DNA of 63,470 nucleotides, the filler included, from Intoshia linei (lineage: Eukaryota > Animalia > Orthonectida), in assembly GCA_001642005.1 (NCBI GenBank). It is 4 parts of 4 records of this genome, joined end to end, with 100 filler letters (N's around TTAATTAATTAA, not from the genome) between each part and the next. Parts side by side here need not be neighbours in the genome. Positions count along the whole stretch, not along the records: positions 1 to 24,251 come from LWCA01000535.1; 3 more parts are not named here. One strand, written 5' to 3'. Positions 830 through 62,683 of this stretch are shown here, piece by piece. Under the pieces are notes generated by a model. That model saw nothing but the letters and a program-made list of their open reading frames with translations. It did no database searches and was not told the DNA's origin. Within the stretch, counting starts at the first letter, position 1. Each line of letters opens with the position of its first letter. A program made the translations under genes and the position numbers.

Positions 830-1190
830 GGGGCAAGAAGATCTTTGATCGGCAATGTTAAGCCCCAAATATGTCTTTATTACGTCCCATTGATATATTA
901 TCATTTTAATTGCGGACGACCTAACCAACCACCTCGTCTTACTTATTAGTATAAACATCAAAGGAGAGCGTTCATCGTTAATAATCATGTATACATTTTT
1001 ATATTCGCTGATCTGAGGCGATTTAAAAAAATTGAAAGTTTTACTAATAATAAAATTGATATCACCTGGAATGACGTGAATGCGTAACTACAAGCTAAAT
1101 GTAATGAAAGACATGTACATTTAACAAGTATGAGGTTTTGATTATCCTGTCTTAATTTTGTATATAAATAATTTTTAATCCATCATAGGT
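830..1190 (-). mobile_element. hAT transposase relic (frameshifted)
   Basis: Fragments YTKLRQDNQNLILVKCTCLSLHLACSYA (decayed CxxH motif) and YKNVYMIINDERSP...SKTRWLVRSSAIKMIIYQWDVIKTY (hAT TRW motif). Confidence 0.7.
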
Positions 1191-1222
1191 TTAATTTTTA
1201 ATTTGTGCCAACATTCTTTCAT

Positions 1223-1810
1223 TTAAACATCATTGTGATATGCATTTTTAGAGTTGCTGGCATCCATCCAAACTTTAATGCAATCGTACATGGTAAATTT
1301 GAAAAAAGATAGCATTGATTCAGATCTGTCTACATTGAGACTATATGTTTTTATAGCATATATCATGCGACACATCCATCGAGCTTTTGAGGTTGCAACT
1401 GGTTTCAATAATTTATCTTTGCTACGTCTCAAAATGGAAATAAACAATTGAAAACATTTTTTATAATCATCCTTTTTGTATCTTTTAATTGCTGAAAGAT
1501 AATACGTCAGAAACGTTTATACTATTCATGGTTAATTTTTGGTGGAAGGTAAAATTTATTGTATAGATTTATATCCTTGGCATATATTTTTTTTCCAAAA
1601 TCTTTATTGGTGTCAGGTTGGCATGTATCACGAAGGATTTTCTATAAACTGAAGACAGAATAATCTCAAGGATATGATGACGACACGGCAATTCGATAAT
1701 CTGATGTTTTAATTTATCTTTAAGAAACTTGACGCTACCATTTTTGTATCCCGTATTAGATGCAGTCCTATGGTAGCATAAACCGACAACTTTCTCTGAT
1801 ATATTTCATT
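1223..1810 (-). mobile_element. hAT-related (hATm-like) DDE transposase relic
   Basis: EKVVGLCYHRTASNTGYKNGSVKFLKDKLKHQIIELPCRHHILEIIL (DTTASNTG / CRHH-type motifs) and PVATSKARWMCRMIYAIK (ARWM motif). Confidence 0.65.
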
Positions 1811-2727
1811 TATTCTATAATTCTGAGATAATTACGTTCAGCTGGAATCAGGGACAGTCGTTTTCTGATGTGATTAGATGTATAATATTATCTGGTATAA
1901 TTACATGTCAAAAGTGACATGTCTAGATATTGTTGACCTGGTCACATTTATTCTTTCGTTATGAAGATTTAACTTGATATTTTCCTGATTTATGGTACTA
2001 TCTAAGTTGATTTCTTCGATAATTCGAGATCTCACCTCATTACCATTTAAAATAGAAGGGTTATTTTTCTTTCTAACTTTGTACCTGGTTTTAGATATAG
2101 GATATTGATATATTCATTTCCTCGTTTTGCTAAGTCGCGTAAAACTTAAAAATATATTATATTGGTGTCAAAGTTAATTTACCTTTGCAAACAAAACTTT
2201 TTGATAATAGGGTTTTATGAAATTTTATTATTTTCCAGTTTTTTCTTCTATGTCTATTATTCTTTTAAATGACAAAATATGTTCAATTTTCATAGTTATT
2301 TTTTCTTTTCTATCAATATTACTCATGGTTAAATTATAATAATTTAAAAAAGAAAGATTTAATCAAATTGATTATGCAAATGCCAAACGATAAAAATAAC
2401 AATAATATAATGCGCAAAACATAATTAAAAACTTTATATAAAATATATATCTTAGTTATAGGTTTTTTTAACTTATATTTCATTTGTATAGTTTCTAATC
2501 TATACGTAGATAATGAGTATTCGTCATAAATACAGTTTTCGTATCTGAACTTCCATTGAACAAGAAATACAATAATAAATATTAATTTAACATTAATTAA
2601 TATAAGACAACCGATTTCTAAACATAGCAATGCAAAAAATTAATCAGTATTTATATGAACGCACACTAGTATTTATATAAATGCAGAATAGTATCTATAT
2701 AGATGCACAATAGTATTTATATATAAA

Positions 2728-3404
2728 AGGTGTTTACCAACTTTTTATTTTCTAGTGCCCCCCTTATAAAATTTAAAATAACTTATATCATTGTTTACTT
2801 TATCAAAGTGTTTGATTTTTAGATGATCAATCATTCTTGATAGTTTCATTCCCTCATTCGAGAATGTCTTTTCACATATTAAACACATTGGTAGCTGTTC
2901 ATTGATTTCAGAGGCAATTACACCATATTTTAAGACTTAAAATTTAAGTAATCAATTGAATATCTACGAAATTTTTTTTTATTGGTCATATTTGATTGAC
3001 GATAGAATAAATATAAAAATAATCTAAAATAAAATATACAGTTAGTTGCATTTAAGTTACCTGATTTAAAATGCGAAAATTAATGAAAATGGTTGATAAT
3101 ATGAATTAAAACTAACTATTTATTTAAAATAATAAGAGATAATTATTTTAATTAGATAACAAATAAAAAGTGAGTCACTATCGAATTTCTCCTTAACTGG
3201 AAGAGTAAATAACTCATCATTATCTAGATATAATGAATCGTTAAGTAGATCAAAAATGAAATACTAAGTGTAGTATGATGAAAATGTAGTAGATAAAGAC
3301 ATTAATTATATAATTTTATAAAAATTATCACAGCGCCCCTTTTACCGCCCCTACAATTACAGCGCCCCCAAGGTGGGCAATAGCGTCCACCTTGGAAAAC
3401 ACTG
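2728..3404. mobile_element. hAT-type MITE inserted into a 22-bp tandem repeat
   Basis: Ends AGGTGTTTACCAAC...TTGGAAAACACTG with GC-rich subterminal CGCCCC motifs; TSD is degenerate. Confidence 0.5.
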
Positions 3405-3483
3405 ATATAGATGCACAATAGTGTTTATATCAGTGCACAACTCTGTAAAGCCCTGGCATCCCATAAACACAGAAATAGGAGTT

Positions 3484-4260
3484 TTATTCGTCGAACGATG
3501 TGATATTGTATTTTTGCACTACATCCACTAATACATCAATCCAACATTTATTTACATCTAATGTTTTTGCTAGCCATCTTTTTAAGGTTAGATTCGCATT
3601 AAATGTAATAATATATGCAAGTATATCTAAACAAACCGCTCTACTTGACTGTGGATGTCGAGCTGTCTGCTGTGAACGATACCGACATTTAATTGATTGC
3701 ATAAGTGTTACCTCGGAATTTTTAAATTCTTTTTCGTTGTTTGTATGCACTAATTTTGGCGGACCAACCATCGCAAACATTTTTTTAAATTTGTTACGAA
3801 GATTAATTGCATTTTATTTTTTAATTTTGCTACCCACATATATTTTGAATAGCAATCAATTACATTCAAAATATATTTGTAGCCCCTTGATACTCTAACA
3901 AACTTATACAATCTGCTATGTATCACTCACGCGGTTTTTGAGTTATGATAGGTTTAATTTTTTGAACCATTATCAACCCCATAGATTTTTGGCATGCTGG
4001 ACAATTTGAAATTATCTGAATTGTTTTATTAAAAATACTTTTATGAATAGTTTAAACCTTTTCACTATCTTTTCTTTTCATGTTGTAATACATTATATCC
4101 ACAATTTCTTTGGTCTACAAATTAAGGAATTAATACGAAAATTTTAAAAACCTTGACAGCTTCGCAATGTCCATTTAAATGAACCACATGTATAGCACGG
4201 TCTTTTTCGACTATTTGATCATCACTGAATACTTTCAGTTTTAATTCACCTATATAGATA
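3484..4260 (-). mobile_element. Degenerate retroviral-type (rve) integrase, Gypsy/Ginger/KRBA2-like
   Basis: GPPKLVHTNNEKEFKN (cf. GxPxxLQSDNGxEF), RHPQSSRAV (cf. HPQSQGxVE), NLTLKRWL...WIDVL...YN; upstream HLNGHCEAVK resembles the H2C2 Zn-binding region. Confidence 0.7.
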
Positions 4261-4512
4261 ACGCAAAAATATAAAATAAATTCACAATAGCTTTCATAAT
4301 AATAATAATAATGGCCGAAACAGATGACGATTACATTATTGTATTTATATTTGATTATATTATATTGATTATTGTATATGTATAATAATACCAATATAAT
4401 TAACCCAGTTTATTAAGTGTATTTCGTTGATTATAGAGGAAAACGATGTAAACAACAATAAAATTAATTTTTTGCTACCAATTTTGTCAACTTTGGATCT
4501 TCTGTAAGATGG

Positions 4513-5405
4513 AAAATGTTGGTCAATAGTCAAAGCAGTGGCCCCTATAGAGGAGATGGTATTAGATACGTTTATTATCATGTCGTTGAATAAGCATCCC
4601 ACTCTTGCAACACGTTTTGATTCTGGACAGAGAATCCGACCTTTAAAAAGTGGATACTTCTCGTAGATGTAGAAATTTGTTGAGCACCATGTTTCGTCTA
4701 CATTGATCAAGAGTCCTAGATTACAGGATCCTTCTCGGATCGATTGCATTATGGACTTTACGTTAAGTTTAATTGATTTATTTTTGTGATTATAAGATAA
4801 GTTATTCAATTTACTCTAATTTTTATAAGTTAGACAAATAATTTGGTTATTTCCTTGGGCTAAAATCTTTGTAGACACATTTCTGTTTGAAGTTTCATAT
4901 TCAATCATCAGCAAGGATACGACACTCCATTCTTTTTGTCGTAACCCTTCGAGTCCTATAAGTTGCCCATTACAGGAGGCAAATTTGCCTGATTTGTTGT
5001 GTACATTTAAGTCTGAGTCTATCTTTATTAAATCTAGTCTGTCAGCATAATAAATCAAAGATTGTTCAAAGAATTTGTGTGTTTGTTTAATTAATTGGTG
5101 AAACCAAATGACTTATCAATAACTTCAAAGTTTGGCGCCGTCGATTCGTATCGTTGGTGGTTATTCCATTTCTCATAATGCAAGTGATAGGCAAAGGTTA
5201 TGAGGTTATTATTCGAATTACCATGACCGGGAACACATCTCATCATATTTTTGAACACTTTATTCAAATTATCTACCATGGTCAATGAACCAAAGGGAAG
5301 CACAATGAATTTGCTCAATAGGAGTTCGGTTAAGACAAAGTAGGTCCCTAATTTGAATGACATTAAGGCAAAAAATCGCCCCATACGTTTCAGTTCCCTA
5401 TCTTT
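4513..5405 (-). pseudogene. Endogenous viral element: rhabdovirus-like (Mononegavirales) L protein RdRp fragment
   Basis: Colinear motifs KDRELKRMGRFFALMS, HLHYEKWNNHQR, THKFFEQSLIYY, GLEGLRQKEWS, LAQGNNQ, LGLLINVDET, ESKRVARVGCLFND, ALT; one frameshift at ~5091 and one in-frame TAG at 4816-4818. Confidence 0.93.
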
Positions 5406-6132
5406 AGAAAATGAAACATTGTCATATAAAAAAAGTGTGACCTGGCGTTCGACATTTGCTATAGCTAACATTTTTGTTTGCCATAATTTTGATCTAAATC
5501 CGATTGAACTACCGCATAATGTTGTGACATGTCCGGTAGGGTGATCATCATATTTAAAAATCAAAAAGTATTTTCTACCATCAGGATTATTGGTGAAGTG
5601 ATCATTTTCCTGAAAAAATTATTCAAATTGGTTGAGTTTGGACTCGACCACTCAACATCGAAATTTTTCTTTAAAAAGGTATAAGTAAACTTTATTTTCA
5701 TAGTAAATGTTATAAAAATTTGTAACAAATATAAAATTAGTATTGTCGCGTCATTTTATAATTAATATCAATCTATCCATAAAACATCCATTAGTAAAAT
5801 TAAATTCGATTAATTTATTGTCGCTCATGAGTCATGACCTTAACGGACATACCAGTTCCCTCCGCATACGTTTTAGAAGAAAATAGTATGTCGGAAATGT
5901 AGATGTATATCAAATAAGCTATTTCGACATCATTGTTGTCCATTAGGGGTGTGATTTTTTACTTTTTTATACTTTGTTTTCAGATTTTAAAAATATTATT
6001 TCCATTAAGGTTGAATAACCATGATTTTACTTATAAATCGTTATAGTGTAATTTGTATAAAATGGTTCATAATTGTAAACGTCATATGACTTTACTATGA
6101 AGTTATACTGTATTATTAATTATATATTTTAG

Positions 6133-9100
6133 TTAAAAATTGGTTCAAATCTTATATTTGATTCATGCGATACATTGGTCGTTAAAAATAAAAAAAATAG
6201 GTACATTGCTAATAATGTGTTAACATTTTCGTAAATTTGTAAAATTCATTTAGATTCATTTATTTTTGTTTAATTAATCAAAGATGTCTATATGATATAT
6301 TTATTATGAAATGTGTACAATACCATGAAGAAGTAATTTTTCATTTAAATTGATGACTTCCTCGTCTAATATAATTTAAAATAATTTATTTGAAAAGCTT
6401 ACTATGATATTTTGTTAATATACAATTTTTCTAGTTTTACTTGATATACTTGTTGAATTATGCTTTTGTAAATCAAAATAATTTAAAGAATGAGCAAATT
6501 CCAATAAAGAACCGAGATTTATCAAAAATATATTCAAACTTCTTCAATTCTATTCAAAATTCCTTAAAACCTTGCCTAGGCCTAGCCATGGATAGGTTTA
6601 ATTTGTTTATTAAATTTTTTCACATTGAAGAATCATTTAATGTGGAAATTTCATCATTGTTTGCTATTTGGAAAGGCCATACCGATGCTTTTCTAGAGGT
6701 AGTTTATTAATAATAGTTATTTAATTTAATAATTATCCTATATTTATATATAATTTTTATTTGAATTTTTTATAATTTTAGTCTAATGAATCAAATATAT
6801 TTGTAAAGAAAGTGGATTTATTCTTTTTAAATTTTATTAACTCATTTAATTTTGAAAATTCAGCAAGTCAGGTTAGTTTTTATTTCATTTTTATCTATAA
6901 TTACGCCAGGTTAAAATTAATTTTTTATAAACAGATGTTTCTGAGTTTTCAGTACTCAGGCTGTGGACAGCCAGCAGTAGGCCCTATAAAGAATTTAATA
7001 AATAATAGTCTGTAAATTAATCTTGAGTAATTTTTTTTTATTGAACTTTTATAATATGCAAATTATCAGCTCAATGATGGTTAGTGTAATGTTAGTGCTG
7101 CATAAGATATGTTATTACAATTTTTTGACTAATTTAATAATTTAGATAATGAAAGAAATGGAAACTATTGATCATCCTTTTATTACAATGTGGTTTTTTA
7201 AATTTGTTTATACGGTAAGTTTTAATTTATTAAATGATCTATCTAGATTTTAGAATTTTGGAATTTTATAGAATTCATATGAATTCATATGAGTAGGTTT
7301 TGGTTACCCATTATGAGGCTATGGATGTGAAATAAGAAATTTAAAAAATTTTTTACTTAAAAAATACATGGTTGATTGACGAAAAACTCAGAAATGCTGA
7401 TTTTAAATATATTTTTGTGTTTAGTTTGTACAAAAAACAAAAACAAATTATGAAAAAGTATGGAAACTGGTAAATGAACAATATTCTTTGTATTTTCAAT
7501 TATTCATCAATAAAATGAACCCACCTCTCAAAGATTTAAATTTATGTAGTATTCATATCAATATTTATCAAAATTACATGAAACTTGTTAAATTTCTTTG
7601 GAACAAACTTGACGAAAAATTTATTCATGATTTTGATAATTTTATTTGTCTTCTTGAAAAAACTCATTTATTTTTGCTCAATATTTGTGAAAATTCCGAC
7701 TGCTTTCCGGACAGAGTATATTATTAATTTATGGACGGAATTTTAGAAATTAGCGAACTATTAATTTTTTTTTATTTTTTTGATAGTACAATTAAAAAGT
7801 TAGTTAAAACGATCAAAAAGATTAGCGCCAATTTTTTTAAAGACGATTGATCTACGATTTTTTTTAAGCCAACATTTTTTCACTTTTCGATTTCAATATT
7901 GTTTTCAATTATACTATATGTGATTATAGCAGTTTCATTTGCTTTTAATGAATTGTTAAACCGACCAAGTTGTGAATGGATTTAACACACTAAAATATAA
8001 TATTTCAATTGACCTATTCAACTAAATGTAACCTTAAAAATCCAATTTTACCAAAACTTACGAAACTTTTTTAAAAGTATTTTAGCAAACCTTACCAAAA
8101 AAAATGAGTATTGACCCTAATATAAAAAATGCATTTTACTAATGCTAATACTAGATTAAATGCCCATGACACTCTAAAATGCTATAATATTGTATAATGA
8201 ATGAAATATTGGAAAAGTGAAATAATTTTTTTTGGAAAGTGAAAAATGTTGATCTAACAATATTGTGCATTAAAATAATATTTTTCAAATTTAGCCAACC
8301 AAATTGAATAAGTTGGCGTTATATTGTGATAAAATCAAGAATGTTCAACCTTTTGTTAAATTGATTCATGAACAATATCCAAACTTGAAAAAATTTAAAA
8401 AGTCACATAAAAATCTTTGCCGACATTTAAAATTCACTGTAAATTTGCTCAAAGCAAAAATTTCTGAAACTAAAGATGTTGTCTACTCACAGAACTGGGA
8501 AAACATTGATACAGTAATAATTTGAATATTATAATGTCCAAATACTTGGTATACATGCAGAGTCGTACATATTTACTGATAATTTTTAGGTGACTAATAA
8601 TTATTATTATTATTATTATTAGCCTCTAGTACGGTAATAAGGGTGATAAAGTGCTGGGTTATTGGTATTTATAGGGCAGACCATACTCTAATACATCATT
8701 TTTCATTTGAATTTTGAAATATATAGTTAATTTTAGAAATATTTAACTGATACTGAAACAGTATTGTTAAAAAATATTTACGATATGAAAGGAGATTTGA
8801 ATCCGTCTTTTAAAAGATTTATCGTAATTATTCTTGATTTTATTTATTATTTATTTTAAGAGAATATTCTTAAACCCAACCATTTTTACTAAAATTCCAG
8901 TTTTATCAACCCTTAAGGGAAAAACCAACTTTTACAACTGTTTGGGTTGGTAAGACTGACTTTTTCCTTTAAGGTTGGTAAATTTTGATTTTTAGTAAAA
9001 ATGGTTGGATTTAAATAGACACACTTTATTTTAATATCAATTTATTTAGAATCGATTTTTAAATGAGAATATGTCAAGTCATTATTTTACCTTTCTCATT

Positions 9101-10223
9101 ATATTCAAAGAAAGCGTTATCCATCTTTATAATGAGGTAATTTAGAATTTTATATCGATATTTCCAACGTCAATTATTAACTTAATTTTTTACTATTATT
9201 TTATTTAGTGTGGGGTTGATGTAATTATACGTTATAAAACTGAAAAAGTTGTTTTTTCTAATTATTTTTTAATTTAGTTTTCACCGCAATATGTTTATTT
9301 GTCAATTGTTTACATTTTTGATGAAATTCATGCAATCAACTGTATATGTGTAAAGTGCTCAAAAAACCCACGTGATCAATTGACACTTTTGACGAAGCTA
9401 TATGAAATTTGCAGTAGTATTTGTAAGCATGTAGATCAGTCTAATGTCCAATTTTTGGCAATTTTTCTAAAAAGGTCGATTGGAAAATTGTATGCAGCTT
9501 TTGAATGCATTCAACACATTGGTCATTCCGATTTAATCGAATCTTTTGATTTGGCTTTGAAAGAGTAATTTTTTAAAGCAAGGTTTATCAAAGTTTTTAT
9601 CCTAAAAAGTTTTAGTACATATTAAAATACACTTCAAATAAGAATGACAATTTTGAGATCATCCACGTTTAAGACATGGCTACCCTAGTATCTTATAAAT
9701 GTAAAATGAGTTTTTTAGTATTTAGTAAACTAAATATGCTATTTAAAAGAATTCTTGAAACGGCCACAAGTTGTAACATATTTATTTAGATTCTTTCAGT
9801 CTTTGTCACATTGTGGAAAAAATGAATATTGTGGTTTTATAGTTCATTATATACCTCAAATTTTGCAGAATATTATAAATGCCAATCAATTGGAAAATGT
9901 CAATATGGTTTTTAATTTTATTAATCCTTTTCTTAAAATAATTTATTTTTGTCGTAGAGTCGGGTACGACTCTTACGGCGCTCCAATGATGATTATCAAG
10001 TTTAATTAATATTTAGTCACTATATTTCAATATATTTAAATACCTTATCACCGGAATACCGATAACAAAAATAACACAAGCTTACGGAGAAATTTCAGAT
10101 GTACATAAATTTATGCTTGGAAAAATTTACACAAATCTCGATATAAAACTGACTACAAACGTAAAACGTGCATCATATAATCAACACCAAACAAGTTGTA
10201 AAATTAAAAAAATTTTGGAATAA
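6133..10223 (+). CDS. Uncharacterised multi-exon gene (helical, F/L/I-rich); boundaries approximate
   Basis: Series of co-oriented ORF segments (6441, 7488, 8304, 9299, 9755, 10017-10223) bounded by GT-AG introns; no family recognised. Confidence 0.55.
8870..9016. repeat. Foldback/palindromic MITE-like element in an intron
   Basis: CCAACCATTTTTACTAAAA ... TTTTAGTAAAAATGGTTGG with further internal inverted symmetry. Confidence 0.7.
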
Positions 10224-10233
10224 TTTAATAAAT

Positions 10234-11319
10234 TTACTGTACAAATGAACGTAAAACATGTACATCACAAACTACTTTTTCGTTCTCGTCAATACCTCCA
10301 TGAACGTATAACTGATTCTCGTAAATGCAAGAAATACTACTGGCTCGGTGTAATTTCGAATGTTTTAAACGTACCCAGCAATTATAGAACGCATTAGATT
10401 TTTTTAGTCTTGATTTGGAACTATCATTGGGATTGAGGTTGTTTTGAAGGGTTAATATCCAAATTTCATTGACAGGTTTTCTAGATCTGCCATCCATGGT
10501 TTCACCTCCATACATTAATAGTCCCATGTTTGTAGAAACTACAATTTGACGACGCCGCCCACATGGTTGTTTTGTGTTGTGATGTACATTTTTCAAATTG
10601 GCATCTTGAAGTTTCATTAGGTGGTTGGTATTAATGTTGACATTATTTTCTATAAAAGTATTTGTTTTATTGTTTGCGTTACACCAATTATTTCCGTGTA
10701 CTTCAAGGCTTAGATTTTGTCGGCCTCCAATTATATATGTGTAGTTTTTGGTAATAATAGTTGAATGACCTGATCTGGAGGCTGTTTTGTTACTCAGGTT
10801 CTTGTAAACACATTGGAAATTGTCTAAAGAAATGTTTAATAAATATGCGTTTCCGTATCTACGATGGGTTCGCAATGAACCTTCTCTACCAATAATCAAT
10901 ATTTGAGCAATTTCACTTTGACAATCATCGATTACAACAGTGGATGTATGTGAACTGAGTCCCGCGTCTTTTGGAAATCCGACAACGGTTGGAATAGTCC
11001 ATTTTTTGGATTGAATATTGTAAATGTATACAGCGGAAATTCGTTTTTTACCGTTCCAACCACCGATTAAGACTACAAAATTATTTTGTAAAGAAATTAC
11101 AGTGTGATGGCTTAGAGGTGGTATTTTTTCATTTTTCATGGATAAATTTGACAAATTTGTCCATATTTTAGATTTCATGTTTAATGAATAAAATGAACTA
11201 ATAGGACAATTATCTTTCACATCACCGACACCTCCATAAACATACCATATGTCTCCTATCAAACAACCCGCATGATTAGTCACTTGAGGTCCACAAGTGC
11301 AAAACAATTCAAATTCCAT
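10234..11319 (-). CDS. KLHDC9: Kelch domain-containing protein 9, intronless
   Basis: Kelch GG repeats; GGWNGKKR, AGLSSHT, GREGSLRTHRRYG and TASRSGH match KLHDC9-specific motifs. Confidence 0.85.
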   Translation of the reverse strand: MEFELFCTCGPQVTNHAGCLIGDIWYVYGGVGDVKDNCPISSFYSLNMKSKIWTNLSNLSMKNEKIPPLSHHTVISLQNNFVVLIGGWNGKKRISAVYIYNIQSKKWTIPTVVGFPKDAGLSSHTSTVVIDDCQSEIAQILIIGREGSLRTHRRYGNAYLLNISLDNFQCVYKNLSNKTASRSGHSTIITKNYTYIIGGRQNLSLEVHGNNWCNANNKTNTFIENNVNINTNHLMKLQDANLKNVHHNTKQPCGRRRQIVVSTNMGLLMYGGETMDGRSRKPVNEIWILTLQNNLNPNDSSKSRLKKSNAFYNCWVRLKHSKLHRASSISCIYENQLYVHGGIDENEKVVCDVHVLRSFVQ

Positions 11320-21589: not shown

Positions 21590-22490
21590 CAAAGCTGTAT
21601 TAAGCCACTTTGTGGCCCTGAGCTAAGCAAAGGGCCGGATGCCCTTTAAAATTTCGAGCGAAGCGATAAAAAATAAAAAAATAAGTACCATGTTTAGAAG
21701 ACAGGGCATACTGTTGGTTGGAGACTATGTGTCTTATTTCATTGAGTATTAATAAAAGCATTAAAAGATATTATGTAGTTTTCTAGTAACTTTTATTTCT
21801 TTTACAAAAACCTACTTACATTAATTAATGAACAAAGTTTACTTTTTCATTTAAAAATATGCACCATGCAGTAACAAAAAATTCTTGACAAATGTTGCTT
21901 TCTCACTTTTTTCTGAGAGAAATCAGATATGATACTATCAAAACTGATATCATTCTCAATTGACATTAAGGAGAGCACATTCAAACGAGGTTGAGCTAAG
22001 CAATTTCGAAGTTCATTCATAATTATTTTGAGTTTAGAAAAAGTTCTTTCACCTTTGCAATTTGCAACCATCATTGAAAGAAACATTCTTATGCAGATTT
22101 CAATATTAGAAAATAGTGATTCCAATTTATCACTTTTATAACTTTACATATCAAAAATGTTATTGTTTTTTCCCAATCAAAATAATGTTTAAATTGTTGA
22201 CATGCTATTACTAAATCATTTTTTTTTTAAGTCTGTAAGATTATCAAATGAAGTATTCAATTCATCATTCGACATCACATTTCACAGAACTTTGATTCTA
22301 TTTTCTTTGTAGCTATTTTCTTACTTAAAAACTTATAAACTATTTCTTAAGATATAAATGTGAAGTATTATTTAATAAATTGGGGCCACTTTTTAAGATA
22401 TATGTGTAAAGTACTTTTATTAAGTTCAGGTTTTTTTAATGAGTGGCCCTGGGCTACAGTTCATATTGCTTATGCCTTAAAACGGCTCTG
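21590..22490 (-). mobile_element. Internally deleted hAT (Tip100/ZMYM-like) transposon retaining the dimerisation domain
   Basis: TIRs CAAAGCTGTATTAAG / CTTAAAACGGCTCTG; TSD CATACAT(T/A); ORF 21847-22125 NCKGERTFSKLKII...RLNVLSLMSIE (Dimer_Tnp_hAT). Confidence 0.88.
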
Positions 22491-30405: not shown

Positions 30406-33400
30406 TTATTTAGAACTAAAAACACTAGTTCCTCTGATGGGATACATATTATTTGAATCTTTGTATATATTTGTGTACAATTCTTTATTGTCGGGGAATT
30501 TTGAACTTTTTGCGTTTTTGACGGATTTGTCTACTTTAATTTTAATTTCTTTTTCCAGTTTATTTATTTCCTCTGGTGTAACAAAGTCATTTTCGATCAA
30601 TACATTTTTAAACAATATTATTGGATCGTTATTTTTACGGACGTTCTGTATCTCTTCTCTAGTTCTATAACTTGTTCCAGGATCACTCATACTGTGACCA
30701 TGATATCTAAAAAGTCATTAAAATGTATATTTGTAAAATGAAAATTAACGAAGTAGGAAATACATTCTACGAAAACAGGAAATGTATGTATTCACCTATA
30801 TGTAGTCATTTCCAAAATAATGGGTCCTTTTTTATTTATACACCAATCTCTGGCCCAGCGAGTTGCTTCCAATACAGCCAATACATCCATACCATCCACT
30901 TTAATACCAGGTATATAATCTCCTCGTGTGTAGTACTCTATTGACGCAGAAGCACGATCTACACTTGTTCCCATTCCATAACCATTATTTTCGCATACAA
31001 AGACGCACGGCAATTTCCATAATTTCGCCATATTGTAAGCCTAATAAAATCGTATAAATTAAATCATATTAATAAAAGTCCACCTTTTAATGGTTTTTAA
31101 AACCAATATTGGAAATCCCAGTTTTAAAATTTAAAATAATTGTTAATAATAATAATTTTTACTTCAAAAACTTGACCTTGATTAGCTGCACCATCACCAT
31201 ACAGAGTGTAACAAACACCCTTATTTTGTTTAAGTTTCATGGCCAAAGCAACTCCGGCTCCAACAGGAACCTAATAAAATTTTATTAATAAATGTAACAT
31301 ACTAAAAAAAGAATCATCTGATACACTAGTGCTTCTCAACTTTTTTTTCGCTGTGGACCATATTTTATTCTAAAAAGTTTTGTGGACCATCATTAACAAG
31401 GTTTCGCAAATCCCGGGTAGCGGCAGAAATTATATATTAACGAATATACTTACTTTAATTTCCATAGTTATATATTTATACTAACGTTGTAAAACGAGGA
31501 ATAAAAAAAAGTAACTTGAGTGTTTCAAAGAGTAGAAATTTTGCGAGTTTCTCTTAGCCTTAGTAAAAATTAAGCTTGTATTTATATTTAGAGTACTATA
31601 TGACTTTTATTTTTTGTAAACGCTGGTAGTCGAGTTGCGCACTGCAAATAAAGATTTTCCTAAAAAATATTGAAAAATAGTTTATTATCTGAATTATCAT
31701 TGGTTGATATATCAAAATTAACAACAAATATGAATATTACACCCAATATCTTTATTTTTTGATGACTTATTTTTGAGTGAAACAGAGAAAAACGTCCAAC
31801 AGAGGTGTAACACTTGTAAGACCACACAAATTCAATGAAAAAAATATAACCCTGCCCAGTAAATAATTTTTCTAATCTTAATTTAATAGAAACTAAACTT
31901 TTTAACAATAAAACGAATACTAATTATACCTTAAACCTTAAATACACTATAAATCAACTTTTTATTCTTATTCTAATAATTAAAATATGTAAGTAAGACA
32001 ATATTTAATTGTAATTATTTATCTATTCTAAATTAAATTAGAATAGTCTAGATTCCTGTCTTCCATAATAATATTATAATACAGTGTAATACGACATAGT
32101 CGAAAATCTAAAATATATTATTAAAACAAAAAAAACCAAAAGCATAGATGAATTTATCAATTAAAAAGGATAAACCTCTGATACACATCGAGAATTACTT
32201 CCTTTCTTAAATTTGAAAGATTTTTGGAGCGATATTTTAAAATATTTAGCCTTGAGAGAGTTCGCTCAGATACCTCGTTTGTCAATCGTACGTCCAATTT
32301 CGGTTGAGATGTATATTTGTGTTAAGTATAAAAGAAATGCATTTTTTCCCCTTAAAGAGACATAATTAGTTCTTCGTACATTTTTGATTGATGTATTATT
32401 GATACACATTTTTTCCATGCATCAAACCAAATATTTAAAACAAAATTACAACATTCTGCCAAACTTATGTTTCTAAAACCCAAAATATATGCCATTAATG
32501 CTAAATTAGCGCGGATGTTCCATCTGGCATTTGACATATTTGGTAATTTCTTCCATTTAATTTTAACTTTTTTTCAATATTTTCATACAGTCTAATATAT
32601 TTGGTAGTTTTTCTAAAAAATCGGTACGTTTATTCGCTTCTCTTCTGGCAGCAATTCTGTAATCATTGAAAAAAATTTTAATTTATGTTCAATTCTCGTT
32701 TTTCCAATAATATTAAGTCCTGTTTTAACATATATTTCATGCCATTCTTATGAAACTATTCTGAAAACCTATGCTTTTTTTCCATTCAAACATAATATTC
32801 GTTGTAAGACATTTTTTCTTGATGGAATTTTATTTTTATTAAAAATACATTCAAAGTCAAAGTCAAACCTGCAGCAAAATCGATTCGACAGAAAGGCATA
32901 ATTTTATTTTTAATTAAACTGACAACCAAAATGTAAATTATTATCTAAAATTCAGATAATTCAGATGTATTCAGATTCTGAATAGATTCTTAGTAAGAAT
33001 TTCTTAGTCGTTAATATTTTGTTAGTATTATTGTTGATTATAATCAACAATCATAAATTTATACAAAATATTATTTTTTTCAATGCCTTATTTGTTATTG
33101 GTGTTTCTTACAGTGTAATTAATACAAACTATTGACTAAATTGCAATCTTATTGTACCTCAGTCATCCAGTTGATTTCTTTTCTTTATAAAAATGTAATT
33201 AATTACAGAAAATATGGCTTCAACCAACGCCATTGTTGGAAATAATATCATTGAAGATTTGTCAATTTAAAAAATATGTGGACTCAACGCAGTACCGAGC
33301 CCCCTTCGTAGATGTCTCAAAGAAATTTTTGTATTATGGGGGTCTGATTTTTCCAAATTGAGTTCCAAAAACTTTTTCTTTAAAAATTTCTTCAAATCTT

Positions 33401-59200: not shown

Positions 59201-60032
59201 TACAAAAAAATCCATGTTTCGTTTAGTTATTTGTCTTATCAGTATACATCAATAATATAATTATATTAAATATTATAACTAAATAAGTGAACATAGATAA
59301 ATATAATGTTTTAACAATATGGATAAAAGGTAAAATTATTAATTTAACTGTAAAAATAAAGCTATTATTATTACATATAGCTTCATTATAAGGGAAACTT
59401 TAAATGCTCACCGCGAATTAAATATTAATTATTTTTATAAAATTTAAGCGGCATTCTTTAAATCAAATGCTTTTAATTTATATTTATGCTACACGTTTCA
59501 ATTTAAAAAAAATTGACATCCTAGTGTGTATGTTATTCTGTTATTTTTTGTGATTGTTTACATTTAATTTACATTAACATTTACAGCTTTAGTATTTACT
59601 CGATATATTTTGTACTAAATGTTTAACTACACATTTCAATTTAAAATTATCAAACATTGAAAATAGTATTTAATACATGTTACATTAAAAAATAAGGCCT
59701 ACAACATTTTGTATTTTAAGATGCAAATATCTTACATACCCATATAAATGATATTCATATCAGGAAATGTTTGATACAAAGTAAATTTAGTCAAATAAAT
59801 TTAAATTAAACCTACGAAATAATATTCACCAACGCAAAAACCAATTCAACAATTTACAAGGATTACAATTAAAATATAGAATCAAGCAATAGACAATTAC
59901 GACCCAAATTTAAAACACAAATGCAACTGCGCACGTCAATACGCGATAGTAAATGAACATTAATTAAATTAAATAAACGTACATTTTGTCCCTCGACTAT
60001 TTCCAAATTTTGAGAAATACAACACGACGAAA

Positions 60033-60926
<894 letters not shown>

Positions 60927-60952: not shown

Positions 60953-62683
60953 TCACATTTGGTCGTAAATTAAATTGGATGATATGTCTTGAATTTTTGA
61001 AACTGATTTTAGAGATCTGTTTTGTCTCAAATAATCGTCTTTGAAAAGGGTTTTAACGTCTGCACGGTAATCTTTATCGTATACGAGACATCGTCTAATA
61101 AATGCCTAAAATAAATTGATAAATATGTAATATTTATAAAGTTATTACCTTTGCTTCGTTCGAAATGACTGGTTTGTTGGGAAAATCAACGGCTTTGGCT
61201 TTTAAAATTACGTTTTGTTCTAATATGTCATTTTGAGACATGTAGTGTCCAAATGGCTAGATTATGTTTATTTAGTATGATAAATAAATATAATTTGAAG
61301 TTTTACACAAATTTAACACTTTCGTTGGATTACTTAAATAAGTTACATTGAAAACAATACAAAAACAAAACAATAAATATTGCAATACAAACTTTTTGAT
61401 GATATGATTTATAATGGGAGTAGATTAAACCATTTCTTCACCTTAAAAACCTTTTTTAGATGAATCTTAATTTTGTCATTGAAATTAAAAATATATGTTG
61501 GACCACTCATGAAATTGTTTAAATCTGTATTGTAAGCTGCCATGTATATTTTACCAATTAAAATACTGACCAGAATCATAAATAATTATAATTGCCGTAT
61601 ATCAGGGGTAGGCAACCTTTTGCATCTCGGGACACTTTTTTTATATCAAAAAATTATATGGGCCCTGTTTTTGAAAATTTAGATAATAGATTTTCATTTT
61701 AACTGAAAAGAAACGTTTCTAGTATATTCAACAAAATAAAATCTGGGACGATCTGAAAATTCAGTATTAAAATGATTATAATGAGTTAATTATAGTAGAA
61801 AATATTTAAAACTACTTTAAAGTTGAAAAATAAATAATTTACATATTTACTCAAAGGGTTATACAAATTATTCTGTAGGTCACTGGTTGCCGATCCGGCC
61901 GTATATATACATATATATAACATTGCTATTAATATAAACTAAAACAAACCTTTTTTCCAATAAGACATTGATAGTAAATTACACCTACAGACCACACGTC
62001 TACTTTAGAACTAATTTTGGGTGGATTTTTACCAAACATGAAACATTCCGGAGGTAAATACCAATACGTGCCAGCACCTTGTGATGTTAATTCTATACTG
62101 TGATCCCTGTGATCATTATCATTTGTCATTATTTTGCTTAAGCCAAAGTCTGTTATTTTAATTTCTCCACTTGCTCTACCATTACACAAGAGAATATTTC
62201 CTAAAATGGTAATGACATAATTTAAAGGGTCTATAATTATATAATTTATTACAATATAATCAGGGTCGTTAAGAGTCGGAAATATACAATATTCGATATT
62301 TATATAATTGTTTAATATAGTCATTCTCTACATGGTGTCTGTCAAACCCTAGCGGTCTACAGAACATTTTTGGTGCCCTGAAAAATTTAAATCTTGAAAA
62401 AAAATTAAATTTTTGACATTTATACAATTTACAAAAATAAATGTCCATTTTTATCTAATTGGTCGGAATAATCCGATAATACCATACAAAACAAAAACTA
62501 ACAATATAATTACCAGGTTTGAGATCATAGTGAATTACTGGAGGCGTTAGGCCACTTAAATATTTTAACGCACTAATGACTTGAATAATTATAGATCTTC
62601 CTTCTTTTTCGCTACATGTTTTGTTTTGTTTTAAATAGAAATCCAAGTCATGGCCATCGCAATACTCCAATATAGTACAAAAG
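60953..62683 (-). CDS. TLK: Tousled-like kinase, 3' exons
   Basis: [76 protein letters not shown]. Confidence 0.95.
61603..61898. mobile_element. hAT-type MITE in a TLK intron
   Basis: CAGGGGTAGGCAACC...GGTTGCCGATCCGG; perfect 8-bp TSD CCGTATAT. Confidence 0.85.

Follow-up and report, generated by a model that had tools for sequence, protein, structure and literature searches.

A decayed endogenous rhabdovirus L-gene fragment in the genome of the orthonectid Intoshia linei and its probable origin

The Intoshia linei element is a non-retroviral endogenous viral element, an instance of a well-known kind. We consider it highly probable that the I. linei genome here contains a dead, single-copy remnant of a rhabdovirus L gene, likely left by infection of the orthonectid germ line with an undescribed rhabdovirus, and likely copied into DNA by the reverse transcriptase of a retrotransposon. 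The element lies within a stretch of 63,470 nucleotides (four parts of assembly GCA_001642005.1 joined end to end; hereafter, the window), where it comprises the following features:

4494-5405, minus strand: endogenous rhabdovirus L-gene fragment covering the RdRp core, with about 303 codons that correspond to about 543-848 of rabies L
5100-5405, minus strand: 5' piece, with the KxRELK-GRFF region and motif A (5166-5186), in which His replaces the viral motif A Asp
4494-5097, minus strand: 3' piece, with motif B (4927-4956), motif C (4843-4860) and then conserved blocks
5094-5103, minus strand: frameshift between the 5' and 3' pieces, which match rabies L 543-644 and 646-848 in two frames
4816-4818, minus strand: in-frame stop codon, common to contigs of sequencing runs X1 and X2 (discussed later)

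The earlier note on this DNA described about 300 codons colinear with the rhabdovirus L core, and each motif it quoted is present on the minus strand: KDRELK at 5405-5388, motif A as HLHYEKW at 5186-5166, motif B as GLEGLRQKEW at 4956-4927, and motif C as AQGNNQ at 4860-4843, where GNN replaces the viral GDN. The plus strand of the region contained nothing viral, the motifs being confined to two minus-strand frames. With the stop read as X, PF00946 matched the two pieces at 96.6 bits (E 1.1e-27, profile 516-631) and 174.4 bits (E 3.7e-51, profile 632-823). Among solved structures the best match was rabies L (residues 543-644, E 1e-30; 646-848, E 1.7e-51) and the second VSV L (E 7e-23 and 8e-42), with further L proteins at E 4e-12 or weaker; paramyxovirus L scored far below rabies and VSV L, consistent with both the closeness to Rhabdoviridae proposed earlier and the trees presented below. 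On these scores, the L match lies far beyond chance.

A profile built from 24 L proteins aligned from 5405 to 4494; the previously assigned extent of 4513 to 5405 therefore holds at its 5405 end, but the 3' end reaches 4494. Because the two pieces are colinear, a single frameshift suffices, as had been proposed together with a single stop at 4816; only the frameshift site needed correction, being a few bases above 5091. Neither tblastn nor the 24-protein profile detected further L pieces in the window and, in a search short of the whole genome, neither an intact virus nor any piece of N, P, M or G came to light. The GC content of the fragment is 35%, versus 26% for the window. An active mononegaviral RdRp has an intact frame, the motif A aspartate and the motif C GDN, all of which the fragment lacks: the motif A and motif C aspartates conserved in rabies and VSV L are both replaced, just as the earlier note had read them (D>H; GDN>GNN). 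The element makes no working polymerase.

Presence of the element in DNA was assessed by aligning the contigs of four sequencing runs (X1-X4) to the window. A 1,172-base contig from X1, a DNA run, covered 4464-5635 with 8 differences and no gaps, extending 230 bases beyond the 5' junction and 30 bases beyond the 3' junction; the latter bridge is one base under the 31-base bridging standard, so that the integration claimed earlier is upheld at the 5' side and borderline at the 3' side. X1 is possibly the source run of the window's assembly and is therefore not independent of it. X1 depth was 14.6 over the element, and flat from 4538 to 5457, versus 15.2 for the contig of a kelch gene and 20.1 for that of a second host gene; by this coarse measure, the element has the depth of single-copy nuclear DNA. 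At 80% likeness no other X1 contig fell on the element, and the paralogues described below are therefore likely to be more diverged. Contigs of X2, which has another sample and study code, covered 4739-4925 (1 difference) and 5050-5419 (0 differences) and carried the stop, the frameshift and both altered motifs, overshooting the 5' junction by only 14 bases. Across the frameshift, the X1 and X2 contigs were without gaps relative to the window. Its lesions recur in more than one sample and its variation is host-like, as in an inherited element.

These data bear on whether the locus could instead be an assembly chimera or contaminant DNA, such as a nemertean endogenous element joined into the contig, which we regard as very unlikely. 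While the element sits between repeats, no one contig spans the whole stretch, and the 3' bridge is so short, an artificial join is hard to reconcile with a depth that equals the one over a single-copy gene on the same contig, with the long reach of one contig past the 5' junction, with the recurrence of the lesions in a second sample, or with related copies on two other contigs of I. linei; further, an RNA virus with such lesions could not be a live contaminant. X2, X3 and X4 resemble RNA, because GT..AG joints are present in them. X3 and X4 did not cover the element, and the X2 depth there (4-5) resembled that over a transposon stretch at 1567-1852; we therefore make no claim of transcription.

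The search for other copies that the earlier note had advised was productive. A HMMER scan of 1.84 billion representatives returned 501 matches at E up to 0.001; among the best 150 of these, four were at least 69% identical to the element and the others at most 50%, and each of the four is an NCBI protein recorded under Intoshia linei, in agreement with the orthonectid host suggested previously. Two of them, OAF67981 and OAF67982 (P0016 and P0024), are gene models of the window locus itself, identical to it in sequence, and like the neighbouring kelch gene (P0001) are placed on a 24,251-base contig. The others, OAF70620 (P0055; 73% identical to the window copy over 113 columns) and OAF65376 (P0129; 70% over 64 columns), are annotated as hypothetical proteins in the I. 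linei proteome, lie on other contigs, and keep GDN; OAF70620 reaches beyond the 3' end of the window copy by about 33 profile positions. UniRef labels the I. linei models 'RdRp catalytic domain-containing protein', and the four public-database 'RdRp' proteins likely derive from dead viral fragments. A word-index homologue search passed 0 of 631 candidates, its range of 353-2000 residues excluding full-length L, and an IMG/VR scan gave six pattern matches, none of them confirmed.

The gene models of the locus splice viral, integrase and flank sequence together, without support from any contig joint. Were A3Q56_04281 and A3Q56_04282 nevertheless real spliced genes that skip the lesions and encode proteins, one of them fused to an integrase zinc finger, the element would be a domesticated gene; NCBI does carry these models, and part of the element has low-depth cover in X2, a run that is spliced elsewhere. 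We consider this the least probable of the explanations weighed here, as both catalytic aspartates are gone, the variation is neutral-like, the X2 contig at 5050-5419 reads straight through the predicted intron, and 3250-6000 is free of joints.

The pattern of variation points to decay. Inside the fragment, six of the seven differences between X1 and the window are non-synonymous, which fits neutrality (p=1.0) and does not fit an omega of 0.1 (p=0.002). The difference rate of the X1 contig (8/1,172) matches that of non-coding contigs (12/1,878; p=1.0) and exceeds that of coding contigs (1/2,586; p=0.0006), these being differences between two assemblies that may include errors. The element retains 34 of the 40 columns that are invariant across 46 viral rows, which suggests about 0.07 substitutions per site since insertion (95% range 0.025-0.15); one stop was seen where 3.5 were expected (P=0.14). 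Variation in the fragment thus looks neutral-like, with an apparent nucleotide decay of about 7%. The element most likely has no present role; service as a template for piRNA-like small RNAs is a possible, candidate function.

The fragment is surrounded by repeats and transposon remnants, as follows:

2808-2906, minus strand: BED zinc-finger remnant, likely of a hAT-type transposon (zf-BED E 0.0023, below the curated cut-off)
3484-4202, minus strand, limits approximate: decayed retroviral-type integrase remnant, with an H2C2 zinc finger at about 3990-4200 and the core at about 3484-3900
4415-4493, no strand assigned: 79-base piece, a repeat or duplicated gene fragment, directly abutting the viral 3' end
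5406-5536, no strand assigned: upstream single-copy stretch, open in frame with the fragment, with no L or Pfam match
5537-5756, no strand assigned: interspersed repeat, with many diverged contigs and X1 depth of 180-237 versus 14.6 over the viral fragment

The integrase remnant lies about 290 bases downstream of the viral fragment on the same strand, and its identification is based on Integrase_H2C2 (E 1.8e-5, in gene model P0016), rve (E 0.012) and an Atlas rve cluster (0.94). The 79-base piece was matched within other transcribed sequences (X2 and X3 records) with two differences and loose ends on both sides. The region 900-5750 is transposon-rich, and the BED finger, the integrase, the viral fragment and an ORF at 1223-1516, possibly transposase-like and without a Pfam match, are all on the minus strand; this bias resembles one-strand piRNA clusters, in numbers too small for significance. 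Two candidate features were rejected. A 7-base repeat (4512-4518 and 5407-5413), considered as a target-site duplication, is one of five 7-mers common to both flank windows, and was dismissed because L homology reaches 4494, placing the left copy inside viral sequence. The stretch 5406-5618, which we had taken to resemble a Copia RNase H or DDE transposase, had no Pfam or PDB support for that reading.

Elsewhere, the window has the character of intron-rich, AT-rich animal sequence, with contig GT..AG joints that span 34 to 579 bases; passages of PMC6543705 report that introns of I. linei are short. The neighbouring kelch gene (P0001) has a mollusc protein as its best outside match (35%). A multi-exon host gene occupies about 5830-10016 on the plus strand, with no Pfam family in the three exons checked; it is oriented divergently from the viral fragment, with its start probably about 430 bases away, and its 3' end overlaps the opposite-strand kelch gene in X3 contigs. 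A 91-base inverted repeat within an intron (8848-9036; X1 depth 837) is likely a MITE-type element, and loose ends in X2, X3 and X4 at 10206-10241, near the 3' end of the kelch gene, indicate another transcript carrying that stretch. Ordinary host content includes a hAT dimerisation remnant (21847-22143), a dehydrogenase E1 exon (30406-30714), a C2H2 zinc-finger gene (59973-60746) and a protein-kinase exon (61929-62327).

Because rhabdoviruses lack a DNA stage, their RNA must first have been reverse-transcribed and then inserted. We postulate that an undescribed rhabdovirus infected the orthonectid germ line; that its RNA would have been copied into DNA by the reverse transcriptase of a host retrotransposon; that the copy entered a transposon-rich stretch, probably by template switching and recombination, or else by recombination or repair; and that the inserted piece would then have decayed without selection on the protein, accumulating the roughly 7% nucleotide change. 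As a precedent, passages of PMC5497376 associate mosquito viral integrations with LTR retrotransposons and piRNA clusters, and propose for them reverse transcription by a host retroelement with insertion by recombination or repair. The surroundings of the element yielded no LTR, reverse transcriptase, poly-A tail or convincing target-site duplication, and no junction signature favours one route. The integrase close by could be that of a DNA transposon and a mere neighbour.

To place the source virus, trees were built with FastTree (128 rows) and with IQ-TREE (60, 49 and 34 rows, the last with LG+C20); the IQ-TREE subsets were hand-picked, with about 300 columns and many unnamed rows, and groups were named after the tree was seen. 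The gene models of the window locus (P0016 and P0024) and 21 short hits were left out, the short hits being placed separately, and the bootstrap of the 60-row IQ-TREE was unsettled (0.948). In all trees, the three Intoshia copies formed one long-stemmed clade (100/100 in IQ-TREE), with a stem of 0.54-1.03 by model and star-like, similar terminal branches of 0.10-0.20. This clade was nested in a 100/100 clade of flatworm rhabdoviruses (Betaplatrhavirus), lyssaviruses and crown Alpharhabdovirinae; the L sequence of the element, as placed by ML trees, falls within Rhabdoviridae. Its named neighbours were Himastelon rhabdovirus 1, psilorhabdoviruses, sphaeridiorhabdoviruses, Eptesicus fuscus rhabdovirus, triaenorhabdovirus 2 and Beihai dimarhabdovirus 1, all of them Betaplatrhavirus per ICTV (passages of PMC12451637); 8 of the 12 listed species of that genus were among the named tree rows. 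None of the 21 short database fragments joined the Intoshia clade. In a side observation, P0017 (a Logan protein of 2128 aa) is a full-length L whose stretch past the last conserved block resembles P0055 by eye, and in trees its companions were triaenorhabdovirus 2 and Beihai dimarhabdovirus 1 rather than the element.

When 94 placements were compared by AU test, with the backbone largely fixed, nine escaped rejection, all of them on backbone branches. Rejected were all placements inside crown Alpharhabdovirinae (30/30), the lyssa and lyssa-like group (16/16), the outgroup (17/17), the Himastelon group (14/14) and the triaenorhabdovirus group (4/4). The best position, between the two Betaplatrhavirus groups, had support of only 84/87 and collapsed under C20, and positions sister to the lyssavirus/lyssa-like group (p-AU 0.235) or to the whole ingroup (p-AU 0.41) were retained. 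A lyssavirus-plus-crown branch excluded the element at 97/94 under C20. Betaplatrhavirus was not one clade in these core-only trees; when its monophyly was forced, with the element inside or sister, p-AU was 0.050, 0.077 and 0.049. The Intoshia copies thus lie among the basal branches near Betaplatrhavirus, outside lyssaviruses and crown Alpharhabdovirinae, in one of several backbone positions.

The best identities of the element to viruses are 51-53%; allowing for about 15% decay brings this to about 60%, similar to the 55-58% between Himastelon and lyssavirus sequences, and from this we infer a genus-level lineage. Tentatively, and as a proposal that may well prove wrong, orthonectids carry, or carried until recently, a genus-level lineage of their own, possibly sister to Betaplatrhavirus, lyssaviruses and crown Alpharhabdovirinae together, in which case the basal rhabdovirus grade that gave rise to lyssaviruses and to the Alpharhabdovirinae of vertebrates and arthropods is not confined to parasitic flatworms. 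If so, the proposed flatworm origin of this branch widens to marine spiralian worms, and a living relative might yet turn up in RNA from orthonectids or nemerteans.

Orthonectids live inside the tissues of the nemerteans and other marine invertebrates that they parasitise. The integration could consequently be real and the virus one of the parasitised animal (a nemertean) or of a co-parasite, with viral RNA or an endogenised copy having entered the parasite plasmodium. Flatworm rhabdoviruses are described in passages of Dheilly et al. 2022 (PMC9241645) as often switching hosts and passing to parasitised hosts, which would suit such a transfer; conversely, three loci with star-like, similar branches and at least two different 3' ends fit repeated germ-line exposure, and no short database fragment joined the clade, in databases whose nemertean share is uncertain. 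This origin is unlikely, and we favour replication of the virus in the orthonectid itself rather than in its parasitised animal.

In the literature searched (subscription papers, genome papers among them, the supplements of PMC11097642 and Fig 1A of PMC6396948 being outside its scope), we found neither an orthonectid rhabdovirus nor a named family or lineage for viral RdRPs of I. linei. Intoshia is absent from the supplements of PMC10101049 and PMC6396948, and the main text of a 31-phylum survey mentions Orthonectida once, for its tree (bioRxiv 2023.11.03.565523; supplements outside scope). The virus-host association that the earlier note called undescribed is new in this sense; the presence of viral polymerase sequences in the species, however, is not, as passages of Pinzon et al. 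2019 (PMC6396948) ascribe viral-family RdRP genes, probably acquired horizontally from viruses, to I. linei, and UniRef labels the models accordingly. That study concerned the same species and included PF00946 in its screen, but treats the matter in one sentence, with the family given as a figure colour; its passages give no accession, tree or lesions, and the genes meant may or may not be the present loci.

We compared the element with (i) Betaplatrhavirus, (ii) lyssaviruses, and (iii) arthropod integrations. Over the whole fragment, Himastelon rhabdovirus 1 has the top BLAST score (313 bits, 51%), the Intoshia clade sits, in the best trees, between or beside the two subgroups of Betaplatrhavirus, and the hosts of that genus are also parasitic spiralian worms (cestodes and trematodes). 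Unlike these viruses, the Intoshia clade has its long separate stem, is rejected from within either subgroup, and is known as dead fragments only; its host is an orthonectid, not a flatworm, and where the genus is characterised by cestodes, trematodes or infested animals (passages of PMC12451637), the present records are labelled Intoshia linei. Lyssavirus and the amphibian and reptile lyssa-like viruses give the highest raw identity and the best solved-structure match, the former likely because lyssavirus branches are short, but nesting of the element inside this group was rejected throughout. On these alignments and trees, the source was a rhabdovirus, and we assign it to neither genus. The rhabdovirus-derived elements of arthropods (e.g., Aedes; passages of PMC5497376) likewise consist of a partial gene in several copies, with broken frames and in a setting of transposon remnants, and differ in host phylum and source lineage. 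The element is ordinary in kind and likely functionless; what gives it value is the host phylum, together with a tree position close to where lyssaviruses are proposed to have arisen from flatworm viruses. Passages of Dheilly et al. 2022 (PMC9241645) propose viruses of parasitic flatworms as the ancestors of lyssaviruses and other alpharhabdoviruses, and report that within the set studied only the parasitic flatworms yielded rhabdoviruses. By way of germ-line DNA, the fossil links another parasitic phylum to a lineage from that same region of the tree; this is firmer host evidence than metagenomic co-occurrence, and gives virus discovery in orthonectids and nemerteans a named target.
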